Of a stretch of 64,000 nt of DNA, positions 25,922-55,060 are shown piece after piece. Position 1 is the first letter of the stretch, and every line of letters begins with the position of its first letter. The stretch is from Naegleria gruberi (Eukaryota), in NCBI GenBank assembly GCA_000004985.1, contig GG738855.1; one strand, 5' to 3'. The position numbers and the translations under genes were made by a program. Under the pieces are notes generated by a model, which ran no database searches, had not been told where the DNA came from, and saw only the letters and a program-made list of their open reading frames with translations.

Positions 25922-25927
25922 TAAAAA

Positions 25928-32972: not shown

Positions 32973-32993
32973 TTTGCATTGTAAATAAAAAAA

Positions 32994-34062
32994 ATGTTCA
33001 AACAACCAGTTAGAGCCTCCACACATCCATTTGGTTATTCTTTATTCAAGGAATTTGGAAAAAAAGACTCGGAAAATGAAATGAAATTGAAAATTAATTT
33101 TATTGCTCGTGATGATGTACTTTTGTCAGCCTTGTCCAATATTTCCAGTGGTGATGATTTTAATTATTCGGATAGACAAGAAGAATTAAAGGAGGAATCA
33201 GAAGGAATTTATAGATTAAAGATTGGAAGACACAAAACTTGCCCTCTAAAAACTACATCTAATTGGACTGAGGAGGAAAGGATCAAATTAAGAGAATCCT
33301 TGTCAACAGAAAAACGAAAATTCAATCACATGCAAATAGCCACGGCTGTTCTAATTGAGAATGAGGCAACAAATGAAGTTTTAATTACAAAAAGGCCAAA
33401 ACATATGTATGTTTAATCTATTATTAATTTGTAATTGAATGAAATATTATGATTTTTAATATCGTTATTATCATGATTTTCAATGTAGGAGGTAAGTAGA
33501 TTTTAAGTTATATTAATTACATTTTCTCATCAGAGGATTTCCAAATACGTATGTAGTACCGGGTGGGTCGATTGAACCAGTGGACGAAACTATTTTTCAT
33601 GCAGTTATAAGGGAGGCTATGGAGGAAACTGGAATAGTTTTGGAAAAATCATCACTGAAACCAATGTATTGTTGGGAGAGTTGTTTTCCAACCTCAATAG
33701 AATTCGGAACTCCATTAAGGCACCATCTGATTATTTATTTTCATGCCAAAGTCAATTTGTTTGAAAAGAATGCATCAACAGAGGAAAGGTACAAGAATTT
33801 GAAATTGCAGAGAGAGGAAGTTGAATCTGCTAGTTGGATTGATTTGTCAATTGCCAAAAAACTTTCTGAGCATCTTGAAGAACCTGCAGATGAACAGGTT
33901 TATCAGAATCAGTTTTTTGAAACCTATAATATTGATGGAGAGTATTCTCATTCACCTCTAAAGGTATTATTCAGCACTGATTCAACAATAGGAAAGGAAA
34001 GGTTGACAACAGGTACACGATTTCTCATTTCTGATTGGTTCTCAATGCATAAAGATTTGTGA
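32994..34062 (+). CDS. Nudix hydrolase, 2 exons: 32994..33406 and 33534..34062, 127-nt GTATGT...CATCAG intron
   Basis: The Nudix box is reconstituted across the splice (KRPKHI-GFPNTYVVPGGSIEPVDETIFHAVIREAMEETGIV). The start lies only 21 nt after the upstream gene's stop. Confidence 0.8.
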
Positions 34063-34130: not shown

Positions 34131-35262
34131 TTAAACCTCAATTCTATGGACATTGAAAAAATAGTTGGCCATATATTTAGCTTCTGCTTCATTTTCTGGA
34201 ATGTAGAAAGTTTCAGGAGATACAATTTGAGAGGCTCTTGTTCTTAATTCAGATGAAGAAAGGTTAGTACCGATGGCAATGATTGGACCCTTGGCAATTT
34301 CTTGCTTTGTTGAGGAACAATTTTCAGACTTGTCAAATATTAAATCTATTTCAGGCTTGGAGAATTTGTGTTCCTTAGTGTGAATGACTTCAGAAACAAC
34401 CTTTGGTAAGAATTGTTCTGCATCATTATATCTACCAGGTAAGAAGATAATAACATTGGATGGAACATTTTCTTTGAGTTTTGTTGGAGGAATTGGACAA
34501 GATTTTTCATTTTCAGTTTCTTCATCCTTTGAAATACCAGTTTCTGGCATGGAGCTTAATGGCTTCATCCAATCAGTAATCTTGGATCGGCTGGTTGAGA
34601 ATCTATAGTTTTCTCCACCTTGAGGAGTGAAATCGTGGACAACATTCCAATGGTTATTATATACAGAAAGGCCAGATTCATGGAATTGCTTAGCAAGACC
34701 AATATAATTTGAGGCAAAACAGCTGAAAGTTACATTCGAAGATGATTCAATGACTGGTCGTGTACCACTGAAAATGCTGACTTCCAAATTATGGCAATCT
34801 CTTGTTCTGAATTGTTGGCAAGCAACAATCATCTTGACATTCTTACTTGTTCTGATGAAAATACTTCCTGAACATGGTCCAATGAAGAATCTACAATCAT
34901 CACAAGAATCAATAAATATTTGAGATGAGTTATCCAACAAATAGAAATCACAATTTTTGCACTTGTCAATATTCATAGCTTGTCCCAAAATTTGACTATC
35001 CTCAATGTTATAAGTTGGTTGTTTTCAAAAGAACTTACCCTGATGTTCTCAAAACTACTCTATCTTGGAAACCGCTCAATAAAAAGTCTTCGGCTTTCAA
35101 TTTTGAAAAATCAATTTCCTTTGGAGTTTTTTCTTTTTGTGCTTCATGACTCCAGACATATTGGAGGGGAGCTGAAGATGAATTTTTGTTGGCAGTAAAA
35201 TCTGGAGTGGTTGTCTTTTCAGTGCTCTTTGAAGAGGAGTCTTTTGTTTGTAGGCAGCCCAT
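34131..35262 (-). CDS. RP2: RP2 (XRP2) homolog with TBCC/CARP beta-helix domain; ARL3 GTPase-activating protein family. Exons 35039..35262 and 34131..34995, 43-nt GTAAGT...GATAG intron.
   Basis: N-terminal MGCLQTK (Gly2/Cys3 lipidation motif as in human RP2 MGCFFSK). Strong match to the RP2 TBCC domain (CQQFRTRDCHNLEVSIFSGTRPVIESSSNVTFSCF…GLSVYNNHWNVVHDFTP). An Arg-finger-equivalent Arg is retained (SIFIRTS). Confidence 0.85.
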
Positions 35263-36218: not shown

Positions 36219-39200
36219 TTACTTCTTTTTGGCTTTCTTTGACTTTCCAGTCTTCTTGGCATTCTTTCTCTTCTTTGATTTAGGTTCCTCTTCCTCTGGT
36301 TCTTCCTCAGAGTATTCTTCAATATCATCATGTTCTTCCTCAGAGCACTCTTCAATATCATCTTCGTCTATTTCTTTCTTTTGAGATTTTTGAGAGAAAA
36401 GAACTGGTGAGCTAGGGGTTGGTGAACGGTCTGTCTTCTTCTTTTTTGAGGTCTTCTTTTTCTTTGGGGAACCCTTCTTATTAGAGAGACCTTGTTTTAA
36501 ATTTCTCAATTCCTCATCAATATTTTCCAATTCACCCTGAATTTCTTCAATTTCGCTCTTGTGTTTTTCAATAGTTTCTTCCTTTTGCTGTTCAGTTTGG
36601 GCATATTCTCCCTTCTCGAAAGCAATTGTTTCTCTGAGTACTTTCTTATACTCTTCAACCTTCTTCTTCTTTTCTAGCAGTAGTTTGACTTCAGGATTTT
36701 CGCTGAGTGGAGTTTGACCAAAACGGAAAACTGGTGGACCTGTAGCCTTAGAACCAGCATATACGATACCAGTTGCTTCAATTCTCTCTCCATCAAGTGT
36801 TAGAATCAATGGGACTGCTAAATTAATTTCCAGTCTCTTTTTTCTGAATGCCAAACCAGTAAGGAATGTTTCAAAAACTAAACTACTACCTAATAAATTC
36901 CAAAATGCATGTCTAATCATTTCTCGTCTAATGTCTATTTCTATCAGATTTACAGAATAGCCAACAAATCCATCTGCGTCAATTGGATCCAATCTCAATC
37001 TACCTTCATTATCCATACCTTTTGAACATTTCTGGATATTATCGAGGGGTAAAACTGGTATCTTGTGAGGGAAATTTTCTAGGAGTCGTCTCACTTTTTC
37101 CATACCATTAGAATCTTGTACAACAATACATTGCATCTTATCTCCCAAGAACCTAGAAATTGTGTCATTGTGCTTTTCATTATCTATATAACCTAGCTCT
37201 CCAAGAATTCCCACAATTCCACTATCTGTTTCCTTTTGGAGTTGTTTTACTTTCTGCAAGGCCTTGTTTTCCGCAAGGCCAACATTGCACTCTTTTTGTT
37301 TTCTACTGTTCTGTGTCTTGATCTCTAACTTCTTTTTAAGAATATTCAATAGTTTGTCAGCATTTTCCATATTTGGCATATCATTTTCGAAGTTCAATTC
37401 ATATTCTTTGATTGTTTTCAGTATATCATTCATTGTGGATCTGAAATTACTAAGCTTGAATTCATTCTCTTGGTGATTTTGCTCGGCTTTCTTAATTTCC
37501 TTCTTCAGATAATCTAGTTCACTGAGACAATTTTGTTTCTTCTCTTGGAGTTCCTTCTCAATTTGTTGAATAGCACTGTTATCAGTAAATCCAAATTCTA
37601 ACTCTTTTGGTGGAAGATTTTTAGTTGTAAAAACTAGCTTATACAAACCAGTTTCACCTGATCCCTCCTTTATGCTAACTCTTGAAAACTTGGCACGACC
37701 ATTCTCAAATTTAGCTACTAAATCCCCTTCTAGCTCAGGAAGTTCACTGTCCATGCTATCTTCTGTTGGTTGAATGGAAAGAGTGACCTTTTTAATTTTA
37801 TCATCGGCAATCACAGTATTGGAATACTTGTCTATCACTTTGAGTGAAAGTTCTTCCCAGAATGATCTTGCATCAATATTTTCTCCCATATTGGTAACTA
37901 CAGGAAGCTGGAATTTATCATTTTCTATTTCCAAAGCTTCCGGATCTCCAGGGGAGACAGCAATATCTAGAGTAGTGTTTATACTCCCATTCAGTCCAAG
38001 AATTGGAACATATGGCAATGAAGAAATGTCCAAAGTAAATCTATATCTGTAAACTCCGGATTTAGTAAATTCTTTTTCACTATTTGCGAATGTATATGTT
38101 AAACTCTTGGAAGCAGATGGGCATGATATGAATTGCCTTTTATCTCCTCCTTGAGGGTTTGCTACTTCCATAATGATTGAATTTGGAGCCTTAACAGGTT
38201 TTCCACTTTCTCCCAAAACTACAACTTCAAAAGGGTCTAAAAAGTCTCCCACCACAAGATTTGTTGTCTTATTGGTAACCTTGAGTTCTGCTGGATGGGA
38301 GCTCTTGATAATATTTACAATAAAGCAAGTCTTGTTTGCCTTTGTTAACTCGTATTCAATCCAGAAAGTATGTCTTCCCTCTGTACCTTTAACCCAAAAT
38401 TGTGGCATATAGGCTCTTCCATTTTCAATTTGTAAATCGATGGACTGATTGACTTCTCCTTGATATTGGATAATTTCAATATCAGTCTCTGGAGGTTCAA
38501 TCTCAAAGTTTCCATGTTGATGTATTACGTTACCAAACTTATCGTGTGTTGTAATGTAAAATGATGGAGTAAGATTATAATTTTCAACATCGAATACTAC
38601 CTCTCCTATCATGTCATTAACTCTCAAAGACACTGGTGGTCCTGGTTCAAGGAGAATATTTTCAATTTTACCCTCTTTGATTTTACCTCCCTTGTCAATA
38701 ATCTTCAAATGGAATTCTCCAGAAGGGCCTATCAAGCTTACATCATTATATTTAAAAAATTTAAAGTGTTCATGGTCATCCAATCCTGTTAGGAGTCGTA
38801 GTTTGTCGAAATCACAAATTTCAATACTTTCTGCTTCACCATTCAATTGAGAAACTATTTCAATTGAAGGTTCAATATTCTCAAGTTCTGGATAATTTTC
38901 ATTACTCTCGTTATCCATCCTATTTCCAAATGCATCCATAATACTGAACTTAACACTGAACTTTTGTTCACATTTAAGTTTTTCAGGTATTGACTTTCTC
39001 TCTATTTTAAATATGCATGGAGGCCCTGTTATGACACGTAAATTAATGGTAAAGTTTGCTATTATCATATCTGTGTCAATATCATCATCGTTCTGTACGG
39101 AATCTCCTGCTGCTTTGGAGAGTATATCGACAAAATATTTAGTAGTTTTAAAAATTTGTGGAACTACTAGAGTTGGTAATTCGCAAATACCTTTTTTAAC

Positions 39201-42200
39201 TTCTAAAAGATTGGCTTTACACCATGAAGCTCTGGCGTATGCATCAATCTCTATCCTTTCGTACATTTCATTGCATAATTCCAAATTCCATCCAACTAGT
39301 TCTGAACTGACTATTGCATTCACTGTTACTTTAAGTGCAGATCTCTCCTTGATCATATTCTTTTCCTCAGTGGTTCTAGTTAGGAGGTTAAATGAAGAAG
39401 GTTTTGCAACTGAAGCTGATTCAATAGTAAGTGGAACATCAATGCAAATATCTTGGTAACTTAGTGTTATATATGCCTCTTTTCGTTGAGAACTACTTTG
39501 AGAGCTTCCTATAGCTATATTTTTGAATTGGAAATAACCAGTTTCAGTATTAAAGGTACCAGAAGCTTCTTCTTTCAAACATTCTCCTTTTACGGTTATG
39601 GTGAGAGGGGTAAAGTCATCTTCACCATCATAAAAACATGGAATGTAGATTTGATTATTTTTCTCATCCAGTAATTTGGCCTCAATATCTGGTAGAATTT
39701 TCTTTACAGAGTTTCCTGACAAGGCAGTAGCTGCATCTTCAGAAAGTTGAATAGTGTGAACGGCTCCAGCAAATATCACCATATCAATTTCAAGAGGTTG
39801 CATAATTAGACCAAATGCTATCACTAATTTTGTTTTTACAAACTTGTTGGAACCTAATGGAGCACTTTTAACAACAAGCTCAGTAATTTCTATTTGATTG
39901 CTATTGTTGAAGGAGGCCTTAAATGAGGATAGTTCTACGGTATCATCAGTTGTTGTAATTTTAAGTTCTTCCGTAATGTTACAAGTTGTCTCTTTGAAAG
40001 GAACAACATTACCATACGTGTCTTGTTGTTCAATGATTAGTGTGGGGAATGGTTTGTCAATAAAGGTTAAAAGGGAATCCTTGAGTTGACTCTTATCTAA
40101 AAGAGATTTGGCACCTTTAACTTTTGGTAAATTGTTGGAAAGTGACAGAGTGGATGGCGCCGCAGCAGTTACATCAATTTTTACCACCTTTGCTTTGATT
40201 CCACTGTCCTCAGAAGAGGATAATTCCAAAATATAAGTACCCACAGATGTAAATTCTGGCTTCAGCTTGTAAGGCTTGAAGCAATGCACTCCTTTTTTAA
40301 AAGCCTTTGTTGAAGTGAGTGACTCATTAAGTTTTTGTTCTTCTTCATTATCACCTTCATAGGTTATGGTCAAAGTAACTGGGTAGAGTTGGTTTGTCAC
40401 AACCTTGTGATCTCCTGTCATTATACAAGCCGACAGGTATTTGAGAGAATATCCAGCTGTAACAGCGTCAGGTGGTGGTCTTCTCTCTCTTGCAGTAACA
40501 TTTGGTGTATCTACAACATCTATATAGCTCGGTAGCTTATTTTTCATTTTGCTGACTTCAGCTTTAAACTCTTGCTTGGTGAGAAGGTTTTGTACTTTTG
40601 ATATTGGAAAGCACTGTCCATTCTTTGAATCATCTGACTCCTTTTCAGGTGACCATTCCTTAACTACAATAGTTACAGAGTATTCTTCTGATGACATGTC
40701 CCTAAACATATCAACAAGAGTTCCAATAATTTTAGGTCTAGTTTTCATGACTAGATAATCTCCAATGGAATAATTTGTTTGTCCGTATTTGATCTTTTTG
40801 TAGAATGTTTTCATACCCTTTCCTTCTTTTTGAGTTCTTTCGAAATCACATTCGTCAAAAATTATTTCTTCATCTAATTTTTTGTGGCATTCCTTAATCC
40901 ATTTTCTATACCTCTGTGTCAAGTTTCTTTCGCTGTAATTTAAAAGTGCTTGACAGAGTGCTGTTTGTTTGCAAAGGTACATTTTGTTGGCCGATACTTC
41001 AAAATTAGAATCAAAAAAGAGCATTCCCTTAATTCTTCTATAGCAATTTTCTGGAATATCCCTATTACTTCTTTCCTTCTCCATAAAAGGTAAATTTTTG
41101 ATTTTTTCATTAGCTAACAGTCTACCATTCCAAAAGCATTCAAATCCAGGATTTCTTTCGCTCAGAGGTACTTCTTGGTCAGTAGGAATATATTTTCCTC
41201 CTTCCAAATATAATTCTTCTGGTATTGGAAGAGTTTCTCTTCCTTGTTTGAAAGGATAGTAATAAATTATTCCTCTCACTGTGCTATTAATTATCGACAC
41301 TCCATATTGGGATGATGTTGGCAGGGTCATTTCAGGCGCGTTCAAATTTTCTCCATTTTTGACACTGAGTTTGATTTCAAAAGTGAACGGTGACTTTCCC
41401 TCCTGAAGATATAATGTTTCCATGTCCTTGTCTTCATTCGATATGGCTGTGCCATCTACTTTCATTATGACATTTTTAGGTTGCTTTAATTGCCATAAAT
41501 CGTCTTCATCAATTGAGGGCATCTTTGTTTTCTTTTGAGACTTGATTGGTGGCATTTCTTCCTCCTCTCCTTCGGAAAGATCATCAATATCACTCATGTT
41601 ATCATTTTCATCAGGATCTTCAATAATATCTCTTCCTTCCTTATTACCATCAGTTCCATGTATATAATAGTGATAGATGTGGCCTAAACGCTTCTTGATA
41701 ATTGCTGGATCATATCTATCGACATAGACCTTCTTAATGTCCGAAATTGTAAAGTGAGTAAAGCTTTCCCATTGTTTTTCTGTATCAGTTGGAGGTCTAG
41801 AAATACAATTGGCTTTCCATTGTTTGTCTTTTCCTGAAGTAAAATCTTGCTCCAACTTTTGCCTTGAAAGGGAAACTTCATAAACAAATCTTGAATCTTT
41901 TGGTTTTGAGACAAGAGTGACTTCATCTCCCAAGTTGAAAATGGCCTTCTTGGAACCTACACCATACCTGGAAAAGTCTGACGTAACAAATTTATCAAAA
42001 AACCTTCTGCGGAGTGGTGCCTTTTCTCTTGTTGGCAACTTGGAATCATCAACTGGGGCTTCAGTAATACCAAGAGTAGCCCAATTGACTAAGGTTTTAA
42101 AATTCATTCCTCTTCCATTATCCCAAATATGGAGCTTGCTTGTAAGTTCATTACTCTGTGTAGGCTTTTCAAATCGAATTTCGATAAGCCTTTCATTCTT

Positions 42201-43037
42201 GTTGAGGACAGTGTTTTGAATAGAATTGTCCAAAATTTCAGCAAGAGCGGTAATGAAGTCATATTCATCTCCTCCGTGAATTAAAATATTTACATGAGGT
42301 ACAATATCTACAGTCAATTGTAAATTAGCCTTAACTTTAGAAGATGATTCAGAAGTATTTTGGCCATTTTTCAATGTCAATATAAAACACCCATGACTCG
42401 AAGTGGGTGGTAAGTTTCTTGTCGAATGAGCACTTTGATTAATGTCGTCTAATATGATAACTTCGTTGGTGTTTGCCTTAGATTTTCCAATTTGAGATGC
42501 ATCTAAATCGGCATCCTTTACATCCTTATCATCCAAATTTCTAATAGATTCAATTTCATTCACAGATTTTAATTTAAAAATCTCACAAATGTAATGTTTC
42601 AATTGATTCACACTTGAAATTTTAGATTTAGGCCCAACAAGTTTTGTTTTTCCAGTGTGGGCATCCACAATCTTGTACATTGTTGGATCTGAATTTTCTT
42701 CGATTTTTGCAGTTGTCTCATCGTTTAATTTGGTTTTTTTTCTTGATGGTTCTATTTCTTTCTTAATTTTAGTTTCTGTCACTGTTGGTGGTTGACTTGC
42801 AAGTTTTGTTGGTTGTGATGATGATTTTGTTGTTTCTTCCGATTCCGATATTTCTTCATATTCGTCAATAATATTACTATCATCTTGGTCTTCCAAATAT
42901 TTACTACTGTTATTGGAGGTACTCTTGTAACCATTTTCCTCATCGTTCTCTGAGGAGGTTCTCTTTTTAGATTTCTTTGCCGTTGTTGATGAAGAATTTT
43001 TGCTGTTCGTCTTTTTGCTTGATGACTTTGGAGGCAT
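36219..43037 (-). CDS. SMCHD1-like giant protein (2272 aa from ATG): N-terminal GHKL/MORC-type ATPase and C-terminal SMC hinge domain, with an acidic/basic low-complexity tail
   Basis: GHKL N-box and G1 box (LAEILDNSIQNTV … LHIWDNGRGMNFKTL). The C-terminal SMC hinge consensus GIVGILGELGYIDNEKHNDTISRFLGDKMQCIVVQDSNGMEKVRRLL…LTLDGERIEATGIVYAGS is preceded by a coiled coil. Single uninterrupted ORF; ATG at 43037 (MPPKSSSKK). Confidence 0.75.
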   Translation of the reverse strand: MPPKSSSKKTNSKNSSSTTAKKSKKRTSSENDEENGYKSTSNNSSKYLEDQDDSNIIDEYEEISESEETTKSSSQPTKLASQPPTVTETKIKKEIEPSRKKTKLNDETTAKIEENSDPTMYKIVDAHTGKTKLVGPKSKISSVNQLKHYICEIFKLKSVNEIESIRNLDDKDVKDADLDASQIGKSKANTNEVIILDDINQSAHSTRNLPPTSSHGCFILTLKNGQNTSESSSKVKANLQLTVDIVPHVNILIHGGDEYDFITALAEILDNSIQNTVLNKNERLIEIRFEKPTQSNELTSKLHIWDNGRGMNFKTLVNWATLGITEAPVDDSKLPTREKAPLRRRFFDKFVTSDFSRYGVGSKKAIFNLGDEVTLVSKPKDSRFVYEVSLSRQKLEQDFTSGKDKQWKANCISRPPTDTEKQWESFTHFTISDIKKVYVDRYDPAIIKKRLGHIYHYYIHGTDGNKEGRDIIEDPDENDNMSDIDDLSEGEEEEMPPIKSQKKTKMPSIDEDDLWQLKQPKNVIMKVDGTAISNEDKDMETLYLQEGKSPFTFEIKLSVKNGENLNAPEMTLPTSSQYGVSIINSTVRGIIYYYPFKQGRETLPIPEELYLEGGKYIPTDQEVPLSERNPGFECFWNGRLLANEKIKNLPFMEKERSNRDIPENCYRRIKGMLFFDSNFEVSANKMYLCKQTALCQALLNYSERNLTQRYRKWIKECHKKLDEEIIFDECDFERTQKEGKGMKTFYKKIKYGQTNYSIGDYLVMKTRPKIIGTLVDMFRDMSSEEYSVTIVVKEWSPEKESDDSKNGQCFPISKVQNLLTKQEFKAEVSKMKNKLPSYIDVVDTPNVTARERRPPPDAVTAGYSLKYLSACIMTGDHKVVTNQLYPVTLTITYEGDNEEEQKLNESLTSTKAFKKGVHCFKPYKLKPEFTSVGTYILELSSSEDSGIKAKVVKIDVTAAAPSTLSLSNNLPKVKGAKSLLDKSQLKDSLLTFIDKPFPTLIIEQQDTYGNVVPFKETTCNITEELKITTTDDTVELSSFKASFNNSNQIEITELVVKSAPLGSNKFVKTKLVIAFGLIMQPLEIDMVIFAGAVHTIQLSEDAATALSGNSVKKILPDIEAKLLDEKNNQIYIPCFYDGEDDFTPLTITVKGECLKEEASGTFNTETGYFQFKNIAIGSSQSSSQRKEAYITLSYQDICIDVPLTIESASVAKPSSFNLLTRTTEEKNMIKERSALKVTVNAIVSSELVGWNLELCNEMYERIEIDAYARASWCKANLLEVKKGICELPTLVVPQIFKTTKYFVDILSKAAGDSVQNDDDIDTDMIIANFTINLRVITGPPCIFKIERKSIPEKLKCEQKFSVKFSIMDAFGNRMDNESNENYPELENIEPSIEIVSQLNGEAESIEICDFDKLRLLTGLDDHEHFKFFKYNDVSLIGPSGEFHLKIIDKGGKIKEGKIENILLEPGPPVSLRVNDMIGEVVFDVENYNLTPSFYITTHDKFGNVIHQHGNFEIEPPETDIEIIQYQGEVNQSIDLQIENGRAYMPQFWVKGTEGRHTFWIEYELTKANKTCFIVNIIKSSHPAELKVTNKTTNLVVGDFLDPFEVVVLGESGKPVKAPNSIIMEVANPQGGDKRQFISCPSASKSLTYTFANSEKEFTKSGVYRYRFTLDISSLPYVPILGLNGSINTTLDIAVSPGDPEALEIENDKFQLPVVTNMGENIDARSFWEELSLKVIDKYSNTVIADDKIKKVTLSIQPTEDSMDSELPELEGDLVAKFENGRAKFSRVSIKEGSGETGLYKLVFTTKNLPPKELEFGFTDNSAIQQIEKELQEKKQNCLSELDYLKKEIKKAEQNHQENEFKLSNFRSTMNDILKTIKEYELNFENDMPNMENADKLLNILKKKLEIKTQNSRKQKECNVGLAENKALQKVKQLQKETDSGIVGILGELGYIDNEKHNDTISRFLGDKMQCIVVQDSNGMEKVRRLLENFPHKIPVLPLDNIQKCSKGMDNEGRLRLDPIDADGFVGYSVNLIEIDIRREMIRHAFWNLLGSSLVFETFLTGLAFRKKRLEINLAVPLILTLDGERIEATGIVYAGSKATGPPVFRFGQTPLSENPEVKLLLEKKKKVEEYKKVLRETIAFEKGEYAQTEQQKEETIEKHKSEIEEIQGELENIDEELRNLKQGLSNKKGSPKKKKTSKKKKTDRSPTPSSPVLFSQKSQKKEIDEDDIEECSEEEHDDIEEYSEEEPEEEEPKSKKRKNAKKTGKSKKAKKK

Positions 43038-43142
43038 TTTATTCTTGTGTTTGTTGGAATACCAACGAGAAATATTTTGGCGCCAAATCTTTAAAGATAA
43101 AAATACAGATCTCGTAACTAATGCCATGTTATTGGAAACACC

Positions 43143-43928
43143 TTATTCATGTCTTGGTGGTTTTTCCACCACTTTGATTTTTGTAATTTGAATATGATCT
43201 TCCAATGGATAAATATTTTCACATTTGGTTCTAATTTCTGCACCCATTCCACATTTGATTGCCATTTGCTCAACAAATTCCAGAATGTTCATCTTACTAA
43301 TATGTTTGGTTAATACTTGAGCCATGACAGTCCTAATCTTATGAATTTGCGACTTACTGGCATAGGATGTCTTTTTCAATTGCAATTCTGTCATTCTCGT
43401 GCTCACAATCATGGCTATTCTAATCTTGTAACCATCCAAACTCTTAAATTCCTGATTAAGAGTTATGGTTGAGCGACCTTTTCCTATCAATGATGCCAAT
43501 TTATCTTGACTCAATCTAAAACCATTAAACTCTGTTTCTGCATGTTTTCGAAGAGCAACATTATTGATCTTCAATTTTACAATATTATGATTCAATTCTT
43601 CCTTCAAAGATGGAATAATATCAGGAGCTGAAACTTCCACTGTTCGATCAAGAATTTTTTCAAACGTTGGAGTTTGATCCACTTTTTTCTTCACTTTTTT
43701 CTTCAATTTTTTCTGCAAGGCGATAGTGTGTTCTGATTTTGTAATGGGTGTCATTAAAGGAGGATAATCTCCCTCAGTATTGGTGACAGTAGCATATTCA
43801 TTGGTATCTGATTTTTCATAGCTCAGGTATGGTGATTCTATTAGAAAGAATTCTTTTCTATCTTGAAAATATTTTGGCAGACGGTACCTTCTTGGTAACA
43901 TACGTTTGTTCCTTCCGAGTCCTCCCAT
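43143..43928 (-). CDS. Highly divergent ribosomal protein eS1 (S3Ae/RPS3A) family member (262 aa)
   Basis: Collinear, weak but patterned similarity to eS1: MGGLGRNKRM N-terminus (compare MAVGKNKRL), LDGYKIRIAMIVST (compare TDGYLLRLFCVGFT), KTSYASKSQIHKIRTVM (compare KTSYAQHQQVRQIRKKM), ENIYPLED (compare QSIYPLHD). Same length as eS1 (~260 aa). Confidence 0.5.
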   Translation of the reverse strand: MGGLGRNKRMLPRRYRLPKYFQDRKEFFLIESPYLSYEKSDTNEYATVTNTEGDYPPLMTPITKSEHTIALQKKLKKKVKKKVDQTPTFEKILDRTVEVSAPDIIPSLKEELNHNIVKLKINNVALRKHAETEFNGFRLSQDKLASLIGKGRSTITLNQEFKSLDGYKIRIAMIVSTRMTELQLKKTSYASKSQIHKIRTVMAQVLTKHISKMNILEFVEQMAIKCGMGAEIRTKCENIYPLEDHIQITKIKVVEKPPRHE

Positions 43929-48501: not shown

Positions 48502-48754
48502 TTTTTTAATTGTTGTCTTATCTGCATAGAGAATTTAATAATTGATGTGATGATGGGCGAATCATTATTACCGGTTGAGTTGTTATTCAGCCGAGAGTAG
48601 ATAGCATGTAAATAATATCTTTGTAAATATTGTAACAATATAGTGGTATTGGTGTGAAGGATTAAAAACAAATTTCATGGTTAATTTTGTTGCAACAAAC
48701 AATTCTTGTTCCCGCCAAGTTTTGGTGGCCATTTCCAAAAAATTCTAGAAAAAA

Positions 48755-51700
48755 ATGTCTACAAACCCATCACGTAGATCAAACTTTCATTCTAGAGGCT
48801 CCATCTCGAGCAGCAGCCCAACACTAGATGAATTTACTATCGGTAGGTGTTATCAACACTAGTTGATGGGCTAATATCATATTATTCTTATGTAATATTT
48901 TCAACATTTATTATGTGGAACAAATATTTGTGTGGATTAATAATAACAATAATAGAAAATTATAAAAGAAAGATCAAGGAGCAAGAATCGGAAATAAGTG
49001 ATCTCCAAAAGGAACTCCATAATTTTCGTATGAAGGAAAGTGATTTTATGTTTAATTCTTTGTTGATGAAGTTTTCATCAGAAAAGAAGAGGAAGAGAGA
49101 TGAGTTCGATGAAGATTCTTGCAATGACACCAGTCAAAGTGTAGCAAAAGCCGAGCAACAAAACACCCACCAAAGCACTCATCTTGCAAATGGAAAACCA
49201 CAAATCACTTTGGAAGAACACGAAAAAAAGATTTCCGAATATACTGCTCAAGTAGAAAACCTAGAGAAGGAAAATTCCGATTGGAAAACCCAAATAACCT
49301 CCTTGAAGGAATTACATGGAAAATTAGAACATCAATTCAATCAGCTTACAGAACAATTAGAAAAGTCTCTCACTGAAAACAAAAGAATTACTGAGGTTTG
49401 TGCTCAAAACGAACAAGCTGTCAAGAAGGCAGAAAGTGAAATCGAATCTTTAAGAAATGAGTTGAAACAAAAAGAAAATATCCTAAACCAATCTAATCAA
49501 GAGTTGGAAACCAGAAAGAATGAGTTGGAAAATGTGAAGAAAGAGTTAGATAGTGTAAAGAGCGAGATGGAATCACAAATCAAACAATTGACCACTCAGC
49601 TCGAACAAAATCGACAACCTGTAACTCAAATTGCTAACAATGACGAGAAGGAAAAGGAGCTCACTCAACAAGTTAAGAATCTTGAGGAAGTTAATTCTAA
49701 ACTTCAACAAGAAATTGTCAGTCTCAACAAGGAAAAGGCCTCATTGGAGCAATTAAATGTTACTCTCAACAGTGATTTGATTAATTCACATGAACAAGAA
49801 AAGGAAAGAGCCAAGAAGGTCAATGAGCTGGAATCGACATTGTCCCTACTTGATGATGACAAGAAGAGACTCGAACTTCTCATCAAGGAAAATGAAACAC
49901 TCTCCGAGGAACGTGTTCGTACTGCTTTGAATGAATCCGAGAGTAAGGATGCTCGTATCACAGAGTTGGAACAACAAAAACAAGATCTCACTACTCATGT
50001 GGAAGAGTTAAAGACTAAAATCAGTGATATTACCAATAACCAATCCAATTATGATCAACAACTTGTGTCTGAAATTGAAAATCAAAAACAATTAATCACA
50101 CAAAAAACACAAGAATTGGAAGAGAGAAATGCTAAAATTGTGGAATTGGATAGCCATGTCCAAAAATTACAACAAGACCTCTCTAATGAAAAGGAACAAA
50201 GCACTAAGAGTATGAATGAAATCACATCACAAATTGAAGCACTCAAATCAGAATTATCTGCAGCCACTGAGAGTCATGCTATAGTTTTGAATGAAAAGAC
50301 CACACTCCAGAATGATATTCAAATTCTTGAAAATGATAAGAATCAATTAAGTATCCAACTTAAAGAAATTCAAGGACACCACGAAAGCCTTCAAGCTTCT
50401 ATTTTGGAAAATGAAAAACAAAAACAAGGTTTGCAAACATCTCTATCAGAATACGAAATCAAAATCGCTCAAAACTCTGAACAAATTAACTTGTTACAGG
50501 CACAAATCGAAAGTCTCAAACAAGTTGAAACACAACTCCAAAACTTGAAATCTGAAAATGAACAATTACAACAACAAGCCACCTCTTATACCGAGTTATT
50601 AAAGAAGAGAGAGGGCGAACTTACCAATCAACAAGAAAAAGAACAACAATTGTTACACCAAAAGGAAGAGGAGATTAAAAGTATTCAAACCAAATATCAA
50701 GAAAGTATCAAAAAGAGAGATGTCAAATTGAATAACATGGAAAGCGAAATCCAAGAATTGAAGAAAGCCTTGGAATCTGCCACCTCTGAAAAGAATCTTC
50801 TTAATACAACTATTGAACAACAAAAGAAGACATTTGAAGACAAACTTGACGATATTAATACACGACACCAAGAAGAAAAGAAGAATCAAGAAAAGCTAGC
50901 AGCATCTCTTACAGAAACATTGAACGAAAAGAATACTTTGGTGGAAAAACTCAAGAGTGAAAAGAATGCCCTAGTTGAAGAAAGATCTCAATTGAAAGCT
51001 AAAGAGGAACTTTTACAAACAACCATTGAACGCTATCGTGCCGAAACAGAGGTGGAATCCAATAATAATAAGAAGAAGGGTGTTAAGCGTGATTCTCAAG
51101 ATGATACTGCACCAACATCTTCCTCAACAATGGACCCTCCAAAGAAGAAGGTAAAGAATGACACACCTGCTAAGAAAGAATTCAAAGTTATATTTTCTGG
51201 TTTTAATGACAAGATTGCCAAGTATACTAATGCTTTCAAGAAGACTTTGGAGGATTATGTTAAGGAATTAGGAGGAGTTATTGTTGACGATGTAGATATG
51301 GGAGCAACACATGTTGTAGCACCACCTGGTGTCAGAAGTAAGTACTATTGATTACCTAAATTATTAACAAGTGTCAGCAATCAAGGTTCTCCAGGCAGCA
51401 GTTGCACACATTTGGATCATGAATCCTGAATGGCTTGAGGAATGTAAGAAACATTCCAAGCTTGTTGGTATGTTGTTGTAAACATTTAAATTCTAATTTT
51501 TCCAAGACGAATCTTCTTTTGGTAAACTGAGAGAGGAAGAATTATTTAAGGGAAAGAATGTCGGTTTTACTGACGCATTTAAAAAGGAATGTGATAATTC
51601 AAAGTATAAGGCTCAAAAAAGAATGACCAATGCCAAAACTCTTGTGGAAGGAGGGTCAGGAGCTGTTACTGAAATGGAAGAAGCTGAATTGATTTTAGTG

Positions 51701-51790
51701 TCTGCTGAGGAAAGTCTTTCTGCAAACGGTAAAACAAAGAGAGTTTTTACTTGGGAAGGATTCCTTGATTACATTTTCCCAAAGAATTAA
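48755..51790 (+). CDS. Long coiled-coil protein with a C-terminal BRCT domain, 4 exons: 48755..48842, 48956..51337, 51372..51467, 51507..51790
   Basis: ~800 aa of continuous heptad coiled coil. The BRCT fold is split by two micro-introns (34 and 39 nt): FKVIFSGF…GATHVVAPPGVR | MSAIKVLQAAVAHIWIMNPEWLEECKKHSKLV | DESSFGK…. The first exon (MSTNPSRRS…) joins via a 113-nt GTAGGT...AATAG intron. Confidence 0.7.
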
Positions 51791-51928
51791 TATTTTTCTA
51801 GCTTGTAAATAAATAATTTATTTTGATTCCTCCTTAATAATTTCACATCACAAAAAGTACTTGGGTATCCTTATCAACAATACTTGTTTTTTTAATGGTT
51901 TGTTGATGAAAATATTCAAACTGTTGGC

Positions 51929-54289
51929 TTAAAGGAAGAATGGGTTATTACGAAGTTTTGTTGATGGGTATTCTTGTGTCAAGTCAACTGATTCAATTGA
52001 TTTTTTGGCGTAGAGTAAACATGCTGGCATTCTTACAGAACCATTCCAATTATAGTAGAGATGTGTTTGTCTGAAAGTAATTTTGATAATCTCATCAACT
52101 GAGAACATGGTATTGTTGAACAAAACTTGGTATCTGACTGGTTTGCTGTATCCAATATTACTATTAATAAAGCACGAGTTCATGTAAAATTCTTGAGTTT
52201 GGTATCTTGACATACTGGTAACAACAGTACCAATTGGTGGATTCTGATTATCCATATTAAATCTGGCATTAGAGTCCTTGTTTACACTAACCAGGCAAAC
52301 TTTGGTATATTCCATTTCAGCTTCAAGACAAAAGTCATGAATAAGTTGAGAAATATCAATACAATCATGTCCACTATTGTACAAAATCAAAGCACTAGGC
52401 ATTCCTCCACTGTTTCTATTACGAAAAGCTTGCAAGGCCTCCTTAATACTTGACAATAACTTGTTACGAATGTTTGTTTCATCACTCTCTCTGAAGGGAA
52501 CTGTATAATACAGAGTAGTACTAGTATTTAGTGAGAGTGAAATGGAGCCTTTAAAGTTTCTTCCCTTTCTCTGAATATCAATACCACAAACTGATACAAA
52601 CTCTTGATAGGATCTTTCGACAGACCAAATAAGACCACCAATCTTGGCTGACATTTGTATCAAACAATTAGGAAGTCTCTTAAACCAATCTCCATTACAA
52701 ACAATACATTGTGAAGGAATACCAACAGTACAATTGTAAAACTGTTTCAATGCACTGTAAATATGCTTATTTTCATTAGCCATGAGGAAAAAGACATAGT
52801 CCAGGTCATTCCAATTTTTGTAACCTTCAATATCATGCATAAAATCTCTACCACGATCATCCAAATCAAATACAAGAGGCTTTCCCAAATCGTACCTTCT
52901 AATGGCATCCATAAATCCTTTAACAAGGAATTGTGGTGATACAAGCGCCCAATTTTTTCCTTGCAAACTGTTAATGACAGTATCCATAGAAACAGTCCAT
53001 TTGTCATTTTTCATGCCTTCAATTCCAGAGACTTGTGGTTGTGGAACAACAGTAAAGCTAGTTTCAAGTGCTCTGTCGATTTGCAATCCAACCGAATCAA
53101 GGAATTGTCTTGACTCTCCACTATTCATTTTGTTAGAAATTCTGGTTATGTAGTCTTCCTTTTGTGTAACTGATTTCTTTGGAATTTTCCTCAAATCCTT
53201 CTTGTTAATACCAGAAATGTAACAAAGTTCTGGAATCAGATAGTTAACTTGTTTTTTCTGATTTCTCATCTTGACCATAACACAAATCAAAGGCTGATTC
53301 TTATCTCTAACATTGATATTGTATCTTTCCTTATAGTATTCAAAGTAAGGAACATCTTTTCCATCTTTTTTAAAGGTCGATGAAGGTGTTTGGTTGAAAT
53401 CAATATCCTTAATGACAAATGATCTATTATTGTAGACGATACTGAGACCCTTATATCTTTCTGCTATGGATAAATAGTTATCTCTTTGCATATCATTCTT
53501 CAAATCTTCAATCATGGAATATCTGCTAGTGATCTTTTGTTTGAATGTTAAGGAGAGACACAAACCACTTCCAAGGAAGGCTAAAGCAGGAATAACACCA
53601 TCTCTCACAGAGTATCTATCAACGATAGCGCCTTCTTTTTCAACTTCAGCAAATCCCAATCTATCCATCTTTAAGTATTTAAAAACCTTGGTCAGACAAA
53701 ATGAAATAGCCTGTTCTAATCTAGTATCTTGAATATTATTGTTAATGGAAACTTCAGTCTTTCCTTCAATTTTCACTAAGAATGGAATCTTGACACCATT
53801 CTTTTCGTATGGCATAACAATTTCTAAGGATGGAACCTTCTCAACAGAAACAATTAATGAGCCATCAAACATTGGCAATCCAGGAATTTGTGAGGTCCAA
53901 TTATAAGTCTTTTTTATCATGAAAAACAACTTGAATTTGAATGGAACTATATTCAACATGGATTCAGCCCATCTCTTACTTTCTTCTGGAATTTCAGCCC
54001 ATTCGGTTGTTTTGGATGCACAAGTCACAGAAAATGATGATAATTCGAAAATTCTATTCGGAAGCATTCTGATTGGAAAGAAGTTTGTTTTAATTCTATC
54101 GGATGATGTTCTTTGCCCTCCGTGGCCTCCTTGATAGCCTCCTCCACGACCACCAAAGCCTCCATGTCCTCCTTGATAACCTCCTCCACGGTGGTGACCA
54201 CCACCCTGGTGATGTGATGGTCTTCCAGAGTTGTCCTCCTTGAAACGTTTGTTATAGTCTTGATTTCCTTCGAAGCCTCTCTTGCTCAT
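51929..54289 (-). CDS. Argonaute/PIWI-family protein with an N-terminal RGG/GGH-repeat region
   Basis: RGG box (GGGHHRGGGYQGGHGGFGGRGGGYQGG). PAZ-like YLIPELCYISG. PIWI motifs (VCGIDIQRKG; ALILYNSGHD; SVRMPACLLYAKKS, compare SIPAPAYYAHLVA). ATG at 54289; the track start is TTG. Confidence 0.85.
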   Translation of the reverse strand: MSKRGFEGNQDYNKRFKEDNSGRPSHHQGGGHHRGGGYQGGHGGFGGRGGGYQGGHGGQRTSSDRIKTNFFPIRMLPNRIFELSSFSVTCASKTTEWAEIPEESKRWAESMLNIVPFKFKLFFMIKKTYNWTSQIPGLPMFDGSLIVSVEKVPSLEIVMPYEKNGVKIPFLVKIEGKTEVSINNNIQDTRLEQAISFCLTKVFKYLKMDRLGFAEVEKEGAIVDRYSVRDGVIPALAFLGSGLCLSLTFKQKITSRYSMIEDLKNDMQRDNYLSIAERYKGLSIVYNNRSFVIKDIDFNQTPSSTFKKDGKDVPYFEYYKERYNINVRDKNQPLICVMVKMRNQKKQVNYLIPELCYISGINKKDLRKIPKKSVTQKEDYITRISNKMNSGESRQFLDSVGLQIDRALETSFTVVPQPQVSGIEGMKNDKWTVSMDTVINSLQGKNWALVSPQFLVKGFMDAIRRYDLGKPLVFDLDDRGRDFMHDIEGYKNWNDLDYVFFLMANENKHIYSALKQFYNCTVGIPSQCIVCNGDWFKRLPNCLIQMSAKIGGLIWSVERSYQEFVSVCGIDIQRKGRNFKGSISLSLNTSTTLYYTVPFRESDETNIRNKLLSSIKEALQAFRNRNSGGMPSALILYNSGHDCIDISQLIHDFCLEAEMEYTKVCLVSVNKDSNARFNMDNQNPPIGTVVTSMSRYQTQEFYMNSCFINSNIGYSKPVRYQVLFNNTMFSVDEIIKITFRQTHLYYNWNGSVRMPACLLYAKKSIESVDLTQEYPSTKLRNNPFFL

Positions 54290-54789: not shown

Positions 54790-54905
54790 AACTACGGCCA
54801 TATCACGATGAATGCATCTCATCCCGTCCGATTTGAGAAGCATCGTCGAGCCACATCAGTACTGAGGTTGGAGACAACTTGGGAACCTGTGGTGCTGTAG
54901 TCTTT
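54790..54905 (+). rRNA. 5S ribosomal RNA gene
   Basis: Matches universal 5S elements (ACGGCCATATCAC, GAATGCATCTCATCCCGTCCGATTTGAGAAG loop C, AGTACTGAGGTTGGAGAC, TTGGGAACC, GGTGCTGTAG). Ends pair as helix I (AACTACGGC / GCTGTAGT). Followed by a T6 Pol III terminator (TCTTTGTTTTTT). Ends are approximate to a few nt. Confidence 0.85.
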
Positions 54906-54987: not shown

Positions 54988-55060
54988 CTCCCCCTGGTGG
55001 GCTCGAACCACCGACCTGCAGATTAACAGTCTGACGCTCTACCGACTGAGCTAAGGGGGA
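54988..55060 (-). tRNA. tRNA-Asn (anticodon GTT)
   Basis: Reverse complement gives TCCCCCTTAGCTCAGTCGGTAGAGCGTCAGACTGTTAATCTGCAGGTCGGTGGTTCGAGCCCACCAGGGGGAG. It has a 7-bp acceptor stem, D-arm GCTCAGTCGGTAGAGC, anticodon loop CTGTTAA, T-arm GGTGGTTCGAGCCCACC, and a T6 terminator 4 nt downstream on the minus strand. Confidence 0.9.

Follow-up and report, generated by a model that had tools for sequence, protein, structure and literature searches.

Short GT-AG introns in the BRCT, RP2, GlyRS and MFS genes of a 64,000-nucleotide stretch of Naegleria gruberi DNA

The introns of S. pombe and C. elegans carry a strong GTA(A/T)GT-like donor and a branch site near the 3' end, signals which resemble those of Naegleria. 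In all three organisms GT-AG introns of a few tens of nucleotides are found, and a narrow lower length limit is common to them. Short-intron averages or minima lie at about 48-50 nt in S. pombe and C. elegans, with 49 ± 11 bp for the short introns of S. pombe and about 48-52 bp for C. elegans (PMC4675715). Naegleria differs from both in belonging to another supergroup (Heterolobosea, Discoba) and in its much lower intron density, and its branch motif is more degenerate than that of yeasts. A published report gives 1.7 exons per gene for N. gruberi (PMC8296547). The term ultra-short is used in the comparative literature for introns of roughly less than 30 nt, as described for ciliates, microsporidia, dicyemids and myxozoans (PMC4675715, PMC13644364). 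Like Naegleria, these organisms (ciliates about 25 nt, myxozoans 22-27 nt) have spliceosomal introns near the physical lower limit; their introns of less than about 30 nt, however, dominate the genome and often have reduced motifs (PMC13644364, PMC5014332), whereas in Naegleria we found a minimum of 39 nt, a median of 72 nt and strong motifs. Human introns termed ultra-short (<66 nt, for example the 43-nt intron of ESRP2) are similar to those of Naegleria in absolute length (PMC4463651, PMC4675715), but they are rare and inefficiently spliced outliers, whereas introns of 39-45 nt make up about a quarter of those studied here. The closest system is N. gruberi itself, since the short introns annotated in strain NEG-M (JGI v1 / GenBank) have the same signals and the same sizes.

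The DNA analyzed here is a stretch of 64,000 nt of contig GG738855.1 (the window), and spliced models from it reproduce eleven public N. gruberi proteins without a difference, identifying the window as NEG-M nuclear DNA. Intron density in the window is about 0.6 per gene. Nineteen introns were delimited, with lengths of 39, 40, 43, 44, 45, 52, 60, 60, 66, 72, 72, 75, 76, 88, 93, 94, 100, 113 and 127 nt. All 19 start with GT and end with AG, including the five shortest (39-45 nt), here called micro-introns, which have the donor GTAAGT or GTATGT in every case. Across the whole set the donor is G1 T2 and G5 in 19 of 19, A3 in 17 and T6 in 17, and position -3 of the acceptor is T in 13 introns, C in four and A in two. 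Mean GC content is 0.24 in the introns compared with 35% in the window. None of the five micro-introns can be read through, as each shifts the frame or contains an in-frame stop, and their removal restores the conserved reading frame of the BRCT, RP2, GlyRS and MFS genes. For the BRCT introns and the GlyRS intron, relatives have either an intron at the same position or a precise absence, the intron sequences themselves being diverged. The existence of these introns, their boundaries at the level of single residues and their positional conservation or precise absence in relatives are established by these comparisons. The coordinates are collected in Table 1.

Table 1. Introns, exons and related features of the genes discussed, numbered from the first letter of the window.
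Feature	Position	Strand	Description
GlyRS gene intron	4031-4096	+	66 nt, in frame, stop-free
GlyRS gene intron	4377-4420	+	44 nt, GTATGT...GTTAG
GlyRS gene intron	5056-5155	+	100 nt
FLVCR-like MFS transporter intron	21061-21105	-	45 nt, GTAAGT...TTTAG
MFS gene intron	21195-21254	-	60 nt
MFS micro-exon	21255-21276	-	22 nt, encodes FIAAWIK
MFS gene intron	21277-21348	-	72 nt
MFS gene intron	21557-21650	-	94 nt
RP2/XRP2 (TBCC-domain) gene intron	34996-35038	-	43 nt, GTAAGT...GATAG
Coiled-coil/BRCT gene	48755-51791	+	exons 48755-48842, 48956-51337, 51378-51467, 51507-51791; 947 aa
Coiled-coil/BRCT gene, first intron	48843-48955	+	113 nt, GTAGGT...AATAG
BRCT intron 1	51338-51377	+	40 nt, phase 1, GTAAGT...TTAAC...TGTCAG
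Putative branch-point motif TTAAC, intron 1	51364-51368	+	branch A 51367 (predicted role)
Internal BRCT exon	51378-51467	+	90 nt, encodes (T)IKVLQAAVAHIWIMNPEWLEECKKHSKLV
BRCT intron 2	51468-51506	+	39 nt, phase 1, GTATGT...CTAAT...CCAAG, in-frame TAA; predicted branch A 51496

An earlier note on this DNA had proposed micro-introns in RP2, in the MFS gene and, with reserve, in GlyRS, and all three are borne out. The spliced 362-aa RP2 model is exactly XP_002680129.1 / D2V7I7, and it aligns without a gap across the junction to human XRP2 (PDB 2bx6, E 2e-50). The spliced GlyRS model of 528 aa is identical to a public N. gruberi protein (100% identity, 100% of the length), and its junction is colinear with bacterial GlyRS structures. 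The 43-nt and the 44-nt intron are already part of these public models. The position of the GlyRS intron is kept in N. lovaniensis (43 nt, contig L003 3778-3820) and in Willaertia magna (58 nt, contig L004 4534-4591). The spliced MFS model, whose exact sequence is absent from the public protein collection, was aligned with human FLVCR1 (8ubw, E 9e-32), and none of its four splice junctions falls on a gap, including that of the 45-nt intron (PPFIV/NTSTL, the slash marking the junction). The 22-nt micro-exon is likewise supported, its peptide aligning ungapped with LGAWIK of FLVCR1; it does not, however, lie next to the 45-nt intron as had been stated, one exon and the 60-nt intron being located between them.

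The remaining two micro-introns interrupt the BRCT region of a gene for a protein that combines a long coiled coil and a basic, NLS-like stretch with a C-terminal BRCT region, which reaches about 90 residues past the Pfam BRCT match. The spliced product scores 41.7 bits against PF00533 (cutoff 21.3; profile positions 14-77 of 78), above the curated cutoff and with a match that spans the domain, and 39.1 bits against PF16770 with the 40-nt intron 1. The length of the region and the conservation of residues 90-179 would be consistent with a second BRCT repeat, for which no match of its own was detected. The closest solved relative is the BRCT domain of PTIP/PAXIP1 (PDB 3sqd, E 2e-7), with which the motif TH..A....RT.K.L.A.....I..PEWLEEC...K.IDE is held in common, ungapped over both splice junctions. 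The match is at the level of the domain only; the Naegleria protein has a coiled coil of about 750 residues and no other PTIP features. That the BRCT domain is restored once two short introns are removed was confirmed, with 36.7-41.7 bits for the spliced versions (depending on the end of intron 1) compared with 21.1 bits for the unspliced sequence. The 90-nt exon between the two introns raises the Pfam BRCT score by 16-21 bits over that with the exon skipped; it carries the helix/Trp motif conserved in the first BRCT repeat and is kept in the closest available orthologue (contig L001, about 80% nucleotide identity) and in all homologues. Intron 2 was proposed correctly: the gap in the DNA alignment with L001 consists of exactly its 39 bases, and the spliced junction KLV/DESSF is colinear with the homologues and PTIP.

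The upstream boundary had to be revised. The earlier note had ended intron 1 at 51371, giving an intron of 34 nt (51338-51371, GTAAGT...AACAAG), whereas homologues, PTIP, the orthologue and Pfam place the acceptor at the CAG ending at 51377. Removal of 40 nt yields VR/TIKVLQ, which is ungapped against 14 homologues (MAFFT) and human PTIP BRCT5, and in L001 a 50-nt intron (397-446) located at the same codon also yields VRTIKVLQ. The shorter version would read ...GVRMSAIKVLQ..., with two private residues found in no homologue and with the near-invariant Thr of the RT.K motif replaced, and it lowers the BRCT score by 5 bits and that of RTT107_BRCT_5 (Pfam) by 12 bits (26.8 compared with 39.1). 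Intron 1 of the window and its counterpart in L001 are diverged except for one conserved block, TTAACAA. Past the putative branch A of the TTAAC motif, there are only 3-4 nt to the AG at 51370-51371 and 9-10 nt to that at 51376-51377. The upstream AG might thus be too near the likely branch A and be skipped in favor of the CAG at 51375-51377. Splicing to the AAG at 51371 would nevertheless restore the frame and leave a significant BRCT match of 36.7 bits; AAG acceptors are known here (two among the 19 introns, including one that belongs to a public model), were the upstream CTAAA the branch site, the first AG past it would be that of this AAG, and since the difference of 6 nt is in frame, the 34-nt form could be a minor NAGNAG-like isoform. 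As the end of intron 1, the AAG at 51371 is regarded as improbable. Of the splice signals named in the earlier note, the donors GTAAGT and GTATGT are correct for both introns, and the AAG acceptor applies to intron 2 only, intron 1 using CAG. Two further readings dispense with the internal exon or with splicing of the 3' part, and both are extremely improbable. A single conventional intron of 169 nt (51338-51506), in which the 90-96-nt exon would be intron sequence that is open by chance, is frame-compatible, has a GTAAGT donor and an AAG acceptor, and is in line with the weak codon-usage score of the middle segment (+2.8 to +4.3); but this segment matches every homologue and has been kept as coding sequence in L001, running there into the downstream exon uninterrupted, and upon its removal the Pfam BRCT score falls to 20.5 bits, under the cutoff and with only profile positions 13-52 of 78 covered. 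Without any splicing at the 3' end, the protein would terminate in ...GVRSKYY, with the TAG at 51349-51351 as stop codon, and the BRCT-like frames downstream would be a decaying remnant. This is what an intron-blind gene caller reports on the strain contig L002 (98.9% identical), where a 773-aa ORF is called at the position of the BRCT gene, equal in length to the ORF of the window from an internal Met to ...GVRSKYY, and the last 55 aa are called as a separate ORF (P0122), identical to the C-terminus. The downstream frames are, however, intact and have strong codon usage (+28.7), their conservation extends through to the C-terminal end in L001 and distant homologues alike, and both gaps, with canonical splice signals, are located exactly where homology requires them. 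The four-exon model with introns of 40 and 39 nt is therefore preferred over these readings.

The preferred reading for the micro-introns as a group is that they are ordinary U2-type GT-AG introns of N. gruberi, whose short introns have a single length distribution (39-127 nt in the window) with the micro-introns at its lower end. We consider this reading highly probable. The earlier note had set them apart as an ultra-short class alongside conventional introns; short GT-AG introns do occur beside longer ones (52-127 nt), but the lengths are continuous and no separate class emerges. A mechanistically distinct class resembling that of ciliates or nucleomorphs could be read from the cluster of five of 19 introns at 39-45 nt. 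Against it, the longer introns have the same splice signals, and the next lengths are 52, 60, 60 and 66 nt and up, leaving no real gap. The same GlyRS intron measures 44, 43 and 58 nt in three relatives and BRCT intron 1 40 nt compared with 50 nt in the orthologue, showing that length drifts across the supposed class boundary, and 19 introns are too few to demonstrate bimodality. A distinct class is thus very unlikely, and with a minimum of 39 nt and a median of 72 nt the introns of the window are longer than the less than about 30 nt typical of ultra-short-intron genomes (PMC13644364). U12-type signals (donor [AG]TATCCTT, branch TCCTTAAC) were not found in the micro-introns, which have GTAAGT or GTATGT(T/TG) donors and lack TCCTTAAC. 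A blastn-short comparison of the 19 introns with the window for introner-like similarity returned only chance matches of 12-17 nt. The claim that such lengths are characteristic of only a few lineages and provide a taxonomic clue is overstated, as the introns of S. pombe and C. elegans are short, too, and the taxon is set by protein identity.

How such introns are recognized can be proposed from their sequences. Recognition would take place across each intron (intron definition), with the strong 5' splice site GTA[A/T]GT and the AT-rich body as cues, together with a degenerate YTRAY-like branch site whose A would be located some 10-15 nt before the 3' end; the first usable YAG or AAG past the branch site would then serve as acceptor. 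Three of the micro-introns have a putative branch motif, TTAAC or CTAAT with the A at 10 nt from the 3' end or TTGAT with the A at 15 nt, and in the other two ATAAC and CTAAA (A at about 12 nt) were picked out by eye. A strict YTRAY match is absent from several of the 19 introns, the branch sites being weakly defined. In the BRCT gene, the 90-nt exon with the conserved core of the first repeat lies between two introns (40 and 39 nt) that would be recognized in this manner. The shortest introns would consist of about 29-31 nt between the 5' splice site and the branch A and about 10 nt from there to the 3' splice site, spacings which plausibly represent a steric floor for this spliceosome. GTAWGT is not enriched (50 observed, 45.8 ± 6.9 expected), and support for the introns comes from frame, homology and the comparison of orthologues, not from the donor hexamer. 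About ten sense-strand GTAWGT hexamers within exons are apparently unused; thus, recognition must depend on more than the signals listed.

L001 lacks intron 2 precisely, P0123 and P0125 among the homologues have one uninterrupted ORF each, with the contigs of the distant homologues being either genomic DNA or cDNA, and the length of intron 2 is at the apparent floor (about 29 nt between the 5' splice site and the putative branch A, then about 10 nt to the 3' splice site). A recent, lineage-specific gain in N. gruberi is a possible explanation for this distribution, which we put forward tentatively and hold to be rather doubtful. Otherwise, the intron would have been lost in the other lineages, and intron loss is generally more common than gain. 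If the gain is true, Naegleria would offer a tractable discobid case of the de novo creation of minimal introns.

The public status of the BRCT gene was investigated by several routes. A search for homologous proteins with the C-terminal 231 aa or the full 947 aa gave no match. Reading this result as a lack of annotation was dropped, because P0122 is present in the set of 15 billion proteins and was yet not returned; the word-index/HMMER search seems to fail on a compositionally biased coiled-coil query. Exact look-ups of nine variants of the 947-aa model and of the protein translated from the L002 ORF found none of them in the public protein collection. Annotation status was also sought in gaps of the EFC/D2V7 accession series, an approach that was abandoned, as this numbering is not strictly positional. 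A scan of metagenome and metatranscriptome contigs for the spliced junction 1 yielded nothing, and a scan of metagenome contigs for further orthologous BRCT loci was negative. In L002, the 113-nt intron of the gene contains a 2-nt indel, as expected for non-coding sequence.

The finding of short introns is ordinary and already known, and its importance beyond annotation is small. What is gained is a corrected four-exon model of the 947-aa coiled-coil/BRCT protein, with the acceptor of intron 1 shifted by 6 nt, the documentation of a micro-exon of 22 nt in the gene of an FLVCR-like transporter, and, for N. gruberi, intron lengths and splice signals from a small set checked by homology (n=19). 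Gene finders for heteroloboseans should allow a minimum intron length of about 35 nt or less, and an AG too near the branch site should not be counted as an acceptor. The hazard for gene prediction seen in the earlier note is not evident, as the public models of 2010 already hold introns of 43 and 44 nt. RNA-seq mapping in N. fowleri was carried out with a minimum intron of 30 bp, taken from an "assessment of predicted genes" (PMC8296547). In that report the mean intron of N. gruberi is given as 203 bp (PMC8296547), and the lengths found here suggest that a long tail or poor models, not the typical introns, account for this mean. The GlyRS gene of N. lovaniensis is split into two public models, for which the short intron was considered as a cause and discarded: the split results from a 1-nt deletion in an A-run (a homopolymer frameshift), which is located downstream of the normally placed 43-nt intron.

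The segments flagged in the BRCT gene are genuine very short introns, with one boundary shifted by 6 nt. The intron sequences described by the earlier note are present in this gene, and its coiled-coil frame meets a GTAAGT at 51338 and a stop codon at 51349-51351. Three frame-compatible continuations exist after 51337: the 34-nt intron proposed in that note, a 40-nt intron, and one 169-nt intron that skips the middle segment. The products of the splice variants were scored against the Pfam profiles BRCT (PF00533) and RTT107_BRCT_5. Removal of 40 and 39 nt gave 41.7 and 39.1 bits, respectively, compared with 36.7 and 26.8 bits for 34 and 39 nt. The unspliced sequence reached 21.1 bits with BRCT, and the single 169-nt intron was rejected because its BRCT score falls to 20.5 bits, below the cutoff and spanning only profile positions 13-52 of 78; RTT107_BRCT_5 was listed for neither (E > 1). 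These scores indicate that the middle exon is real and that the acceptor of the 40-nt intron is preferred. Thus, removing two introns does restore the BRCT domain as claimed, with the end of intron 1 moved 6 nt further, to a CAG.

Coordinates of features in the window
Feature	Coordinates	Strand	Length	Details
BRCT gene, exon 1	48755-48842	+
BRCT gene, first intron	48843-48955	+	113 nt	then 834-codon coiled-coil open frame
BRCT gene, intron 1, 34-nt option	51338-51371	+	34 nt	acceptor AAG
BRCT gene, intron 1, 40-nt option	51338-51377	+	40 nt	acceptor CAG
BRCT gene, 169-nt option	51338-51506	+	169 nt	middle segment skipped
BRCT gene, intron 2	51468-51506	+	39 nt
RP2 intron	34996-35038		43 nt	public XRP2 entry and human XRP2 alignment
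GlyRS exons	3850-4030, 4097-4376, 4421-5055, 5156-5646	+
GlyRS first intron	4031-4096	+	66 nt	GTAGGT...TATAG
GlyRS short intron	4377-4420	+	44 nt	part of public model
MFS micro-exon	21255-21276	-	22 nt	between 72- and 60-nt introns
SMCHD1-like gene	36219-43127	-	2302 aa	GHKL ATPase, SMCHD1 S5-fold domain (E 6e-45), SMC hinge
5S rRNA gene	54790-54903	+		Rfam 79.7 bits
tRNA-Asn(GTT) gene	54988-55060	-
Close ORF pair, 6-nt gap	25919-25930			...GCTTAATAAAAAATG
Close ORF pair, 21-nt gap	32970-32996			TAA...AAAAAAAATG
Close ORF pair, 15-nt gap	43125-43146	-

An exhaustive HMMER search with the C-terminal 231 residues against 1.84 billion representative proteins yielded 229 relatives with E <= 0.001, and the best full-length matches are built alike, with a BRCT region at the C-terminus and a long coiled coil ahead of it. 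Fourteen of these homologues were aligned with MAFFT; the product of the 40-nt intron (...THVVAPPGVRTIKVLQAAV...) lines up with the family motif TH..(A/S)P...R-T-x-K-x-L. The 34-nt intron with its AAG acceptor was judged unlikely because, besides its lower Pfam scores, its product needs two private insertion columns and carries Ala where 13 of the 14 homologues have Thr and one has Ser, the orthologous contig L001 also being on the Thr/Ser side. The second junction, KLV/DESSF, is colinear with 'F(V/I)DE..(F/Y)' of the homologues, and BRCT5 of human PTIP (PDB 3sqd) aligns ungapped over both junctions (thliaskvtRTvKfL...PEWLEECfrcqKfIDEqny).

At the level of sequence comparison, the strongest RNA-independent support is provided by L001, in which the position of intron 1 is kept while its sequence has diverged, and in which the presence or absence of intron 2 is resolved with base-pair precision. 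This 806-bp metagenome contig encodes P0121, the top match of the HMMER search (64% identity), and is a fragment of the orthologous gene with ~80% DNA identity to the window. Its positions 784-806 (AGATCGGAAGAGCGT) are Illumina adapter sequence; the contig end is therefore artefactual and the gene is truncated there. At the very codon of intron 1, L001 contains a 50-nt intron (397-446, GTAAGT...TTTAACAAATTCTATAATAG) that shares with its counterpart just the donor and, as the sole internal sequence, a TTAACAA block, the rest having diverged. Splicing of L001 gives VRTIKVLQ, the product of the 40-nt model. For intron 2, the DNA alignment shows one gap in L001 of exactly 39 columns, at the predicted boundaries; the intron is thus missing from the orthologue, which reads through as KFVNESGFGK (~530 in L001). 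The difference may reflect a gain of intron 2 on the N. gruberi branch or its loss in the relative. The distant homologues P0123 and P0125 are single uninterrupted ORFs on contigs that may be genomic or not.

Another contig, L002, shares 98.9% identity with the window across 6.7 kb and probably comes from a different N. gruberi strain. Both micro-introns are unchanged in L002, and the 113-nt first intron of the BRCT gene differs by a 2-nt indel, which fits a non-coding segment. L002 and the window differ by eight indels, six of which (4-15 nt) are concentrated in the 250-nt spacer that precedes the BRCT gene (48509-48690), and seven substitutions crowd into 24 nt of the argonaute CDS (52862-52885); either a local assembly problem or a small hypervariable patch lies behind these clusters.

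A scan for the spliced junction of the BRCT gene found no match, an exact look-up in the public protein collection retrieved none of nine candidate models, and two homology searches with the protein returned no match. Since the latter also missed ORFs on the 98.9%-identical contig, their null result is uninformative, and such a result for coiled-coil proteins was not taken as absence; the matches were probably lost to compositional-bias filtering. One ORF called on this contig, P0122 (55 aa), equals the C-terminus of the BRCT protein exactly and is present in the wider protein collection. No match listed by the exhaustive HMMER search was highly identical to query residues 1-105.

The short introns in RP2 and GlyRS were both borne out. 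Splicing of RP2 yields a 362-aa product starting with MGC... that equals the public XRP2 entry exactly, and its junction is ungapped against human XRP2 (E 2e-50). The GlyRS intron, formerly called only possible, is contained in the public model; the spliced product is identical over 100% of its length to a 'predicted protein [Naegleria gruberi]' from a 613-kb contig (100% identity), and the junction ...CHSRFE/VENLL... is colinear with bacterial GlyRS structures. Introns at the same codon are found in N. lovaniensis (43 nt, L003 3778-3820) and Willaertia magna (58 nt, L004 4534-4591). The first GlyRS intron is a multiple of three, stop-free and invisible to ORF-based scanning, and was recognised only via its removal in the public model; more in-frame introns may be hidden in the long ORFs of the window. 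The FLVCR-like MFS gene was reconstructed with five exons separated by introns of 94, 72, 60 and 45 nt. Its 502-aa product matches human FLVCR1 (E 9e-32, residues 23-437) with none of the four junctions gapped, and the micro-exon peptide FIAAWIK lies opposite 'LGAWIK'. This upholds the 45-nt intron and the micro-exon, although the two are not neighbours as stated, the micro-exon being flanked by the 60-nt intron. An identical protein is absent from the public collection, so that support for the MFS model comes from homology only.

Combining an ORF-break scan, public-model identity and homologue alignment, we arrived at 19 introns for about 34 genes. Public-model identity confirmed eight of them (GlyRS 44, 66 and 100 nt; five other genes 43, 72, 76, 88 and 93 nt) and homologue alignment six (BRCT gene 39 and 40 nt; MFS gene 45, 60, 72 and 94 nt); the other five (52, 60, 75, 113 and 127 nt) are predictions based on frame, splice signals and motif continuity. 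Lengths form one continuum (39, 40, 43, 44, 45, 52, 60, 60, 66, 72, 72, 75, 76, 88, 93, 94, 100, 113 and 127 nt; median 72, mean 71.5), and short and long introns carry the same signals. In the donor, G1, T2 and G5 are invariant (19/19), A3 and T6 occur in 17/19, and position 4 is A, T or G; acceptor position -3 is T in 13, C in four and A in two introns. Mean GC is 0.24 in introns versus about 0.35 in the window. Counted over both strands, there are 50 GTAWGT hexamers where 45.8 +/- 6.9 are expected, and several lie in exons, apparently unused; the donor hexamer alone is thus uninformative. Because signals are shared, lengths are continuous and they drift between relatives (44/43/58 nt; 40 vs 50 nt), these data give no grounds for setting off an 'ultra-short' class.

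Treating these micro-introns as a class apart, and as a taxonomic marker of only a few lineages, overstates the case. Short-intron averages or minima lie near 48-50 nt in S. pombe and C. elegans; the shortest validated GT-AG introns of eukaryotes measure 30-35 nt (PMC4675715). For N. fowleri, a TopHat minimum intron of 30 bp was set 'based on an assessment of predicted genes', and mean intron lengths are 126-144 bp in N. fowleri and 203 bp in N. gruberi (Herman et al., 2021, PMC8296547). 'Ultra-short' now denotes introns below about 30 nt in ciliates, microsporidia, dicyemids and myxozoans (PMC13644364, PMC5014332), in contrast to the 39-45 nt observed here. By these standards, introns of 39-45 nt are short, yet neither rare nor lineage-diagnostic. 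The 43- and 44-nt introns are already in the published N. gruberi annotation, and such introns are ordinary, known biology of a published genome. A gene-prediction hazard was likewise not borne out: the sole broken model encountered was N. lovaniensis GlyRS, split in the public annotation into 195-aa and 318-aa proteins. The 43-nt intron, which is correctly placed, was dismissed as the cause. Relative to N. gruberi, 1 nt is missing from an A-run beyond it (L003 3885-3900, PYSW02000030.1; GAAAAAATGAATGG against GAAAAAATTGAATGG); this deletion, probably an assembly error, appears to explain the split.

In intron 1, TTAAC (51364-51368) would place a candidate branch A at position 30, with an AG just 3-4 nt past it (positions 33-34) and the CAG ending at position 40 lying 10 nt past. 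An AG as close as 3-4 nt to the branch point is not normally used in splicing; the first AG would thus be too near and the second (CAG) would serve as acceptor. For intron 2, CTAAT points to position 29 as the candidate branch A, likewise at a distance of 10 nt from the 3' end. Candidate motifs in the three other micro-introns (ATAAC, TTGAT, CTAAA) lie 12-15 nt from the 3' end, and a candidate TTGAC in the N. lovaniensis GlyRS intron lies 12 nt from it. A strict YTRAY motif is absent from several of the 19 introns. The smallest introns would accordingly comprise about 29-31 nt from 5' splice site to candidate branch and about 10 nt from there to the 3' splice site, a plausible physical minimum if U1/U6 and U2 are to engage simultaneously.

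N. gruberi is a heterolobosean amoeboflagellate whose genome was published in 2010. Besides GlyRS, ten window-encoded proteins match public N. gruberi NEG-M entries exactly: RP2/XRP2 (XP_002680129.1), ubiquitin E2 (XP_002680128.1), a glycosyltransferase (XP_002680123.1), a chromate transporter (XP_002680135.1), a Rho-family GTPase (XP_002679999.1), argonaute, ARP3, an endonuclease/exonuclease/phosphatase-domain protein and two 'predicted proteins'. These identities establish the window as nuclear DNA of N. gruberi. GC is 32-38% throughout and long ORFs are densely packed. The SMCHD1-like gene is a single uninterrupted ORF, with the argonaute gene (PAZ and Piwi) 9 kb away. The space separating the argonaute gene from the next protein gene holds the 5S rRNA and tRNA-Asn(GTT) genes in a back-to-back arrangement; 5S is thus dispersed among protein genes at this locus. 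Measured from the stop codon to the next AAAAATG-type start, three gaps between same-strand neighbour ORFs are only 6, 21 and 15 nt, leaving practically no space for separate UTRs or promoters; such pairs might be mis-split genes, or else be transcribed as overlapping units or bicistronic messages.
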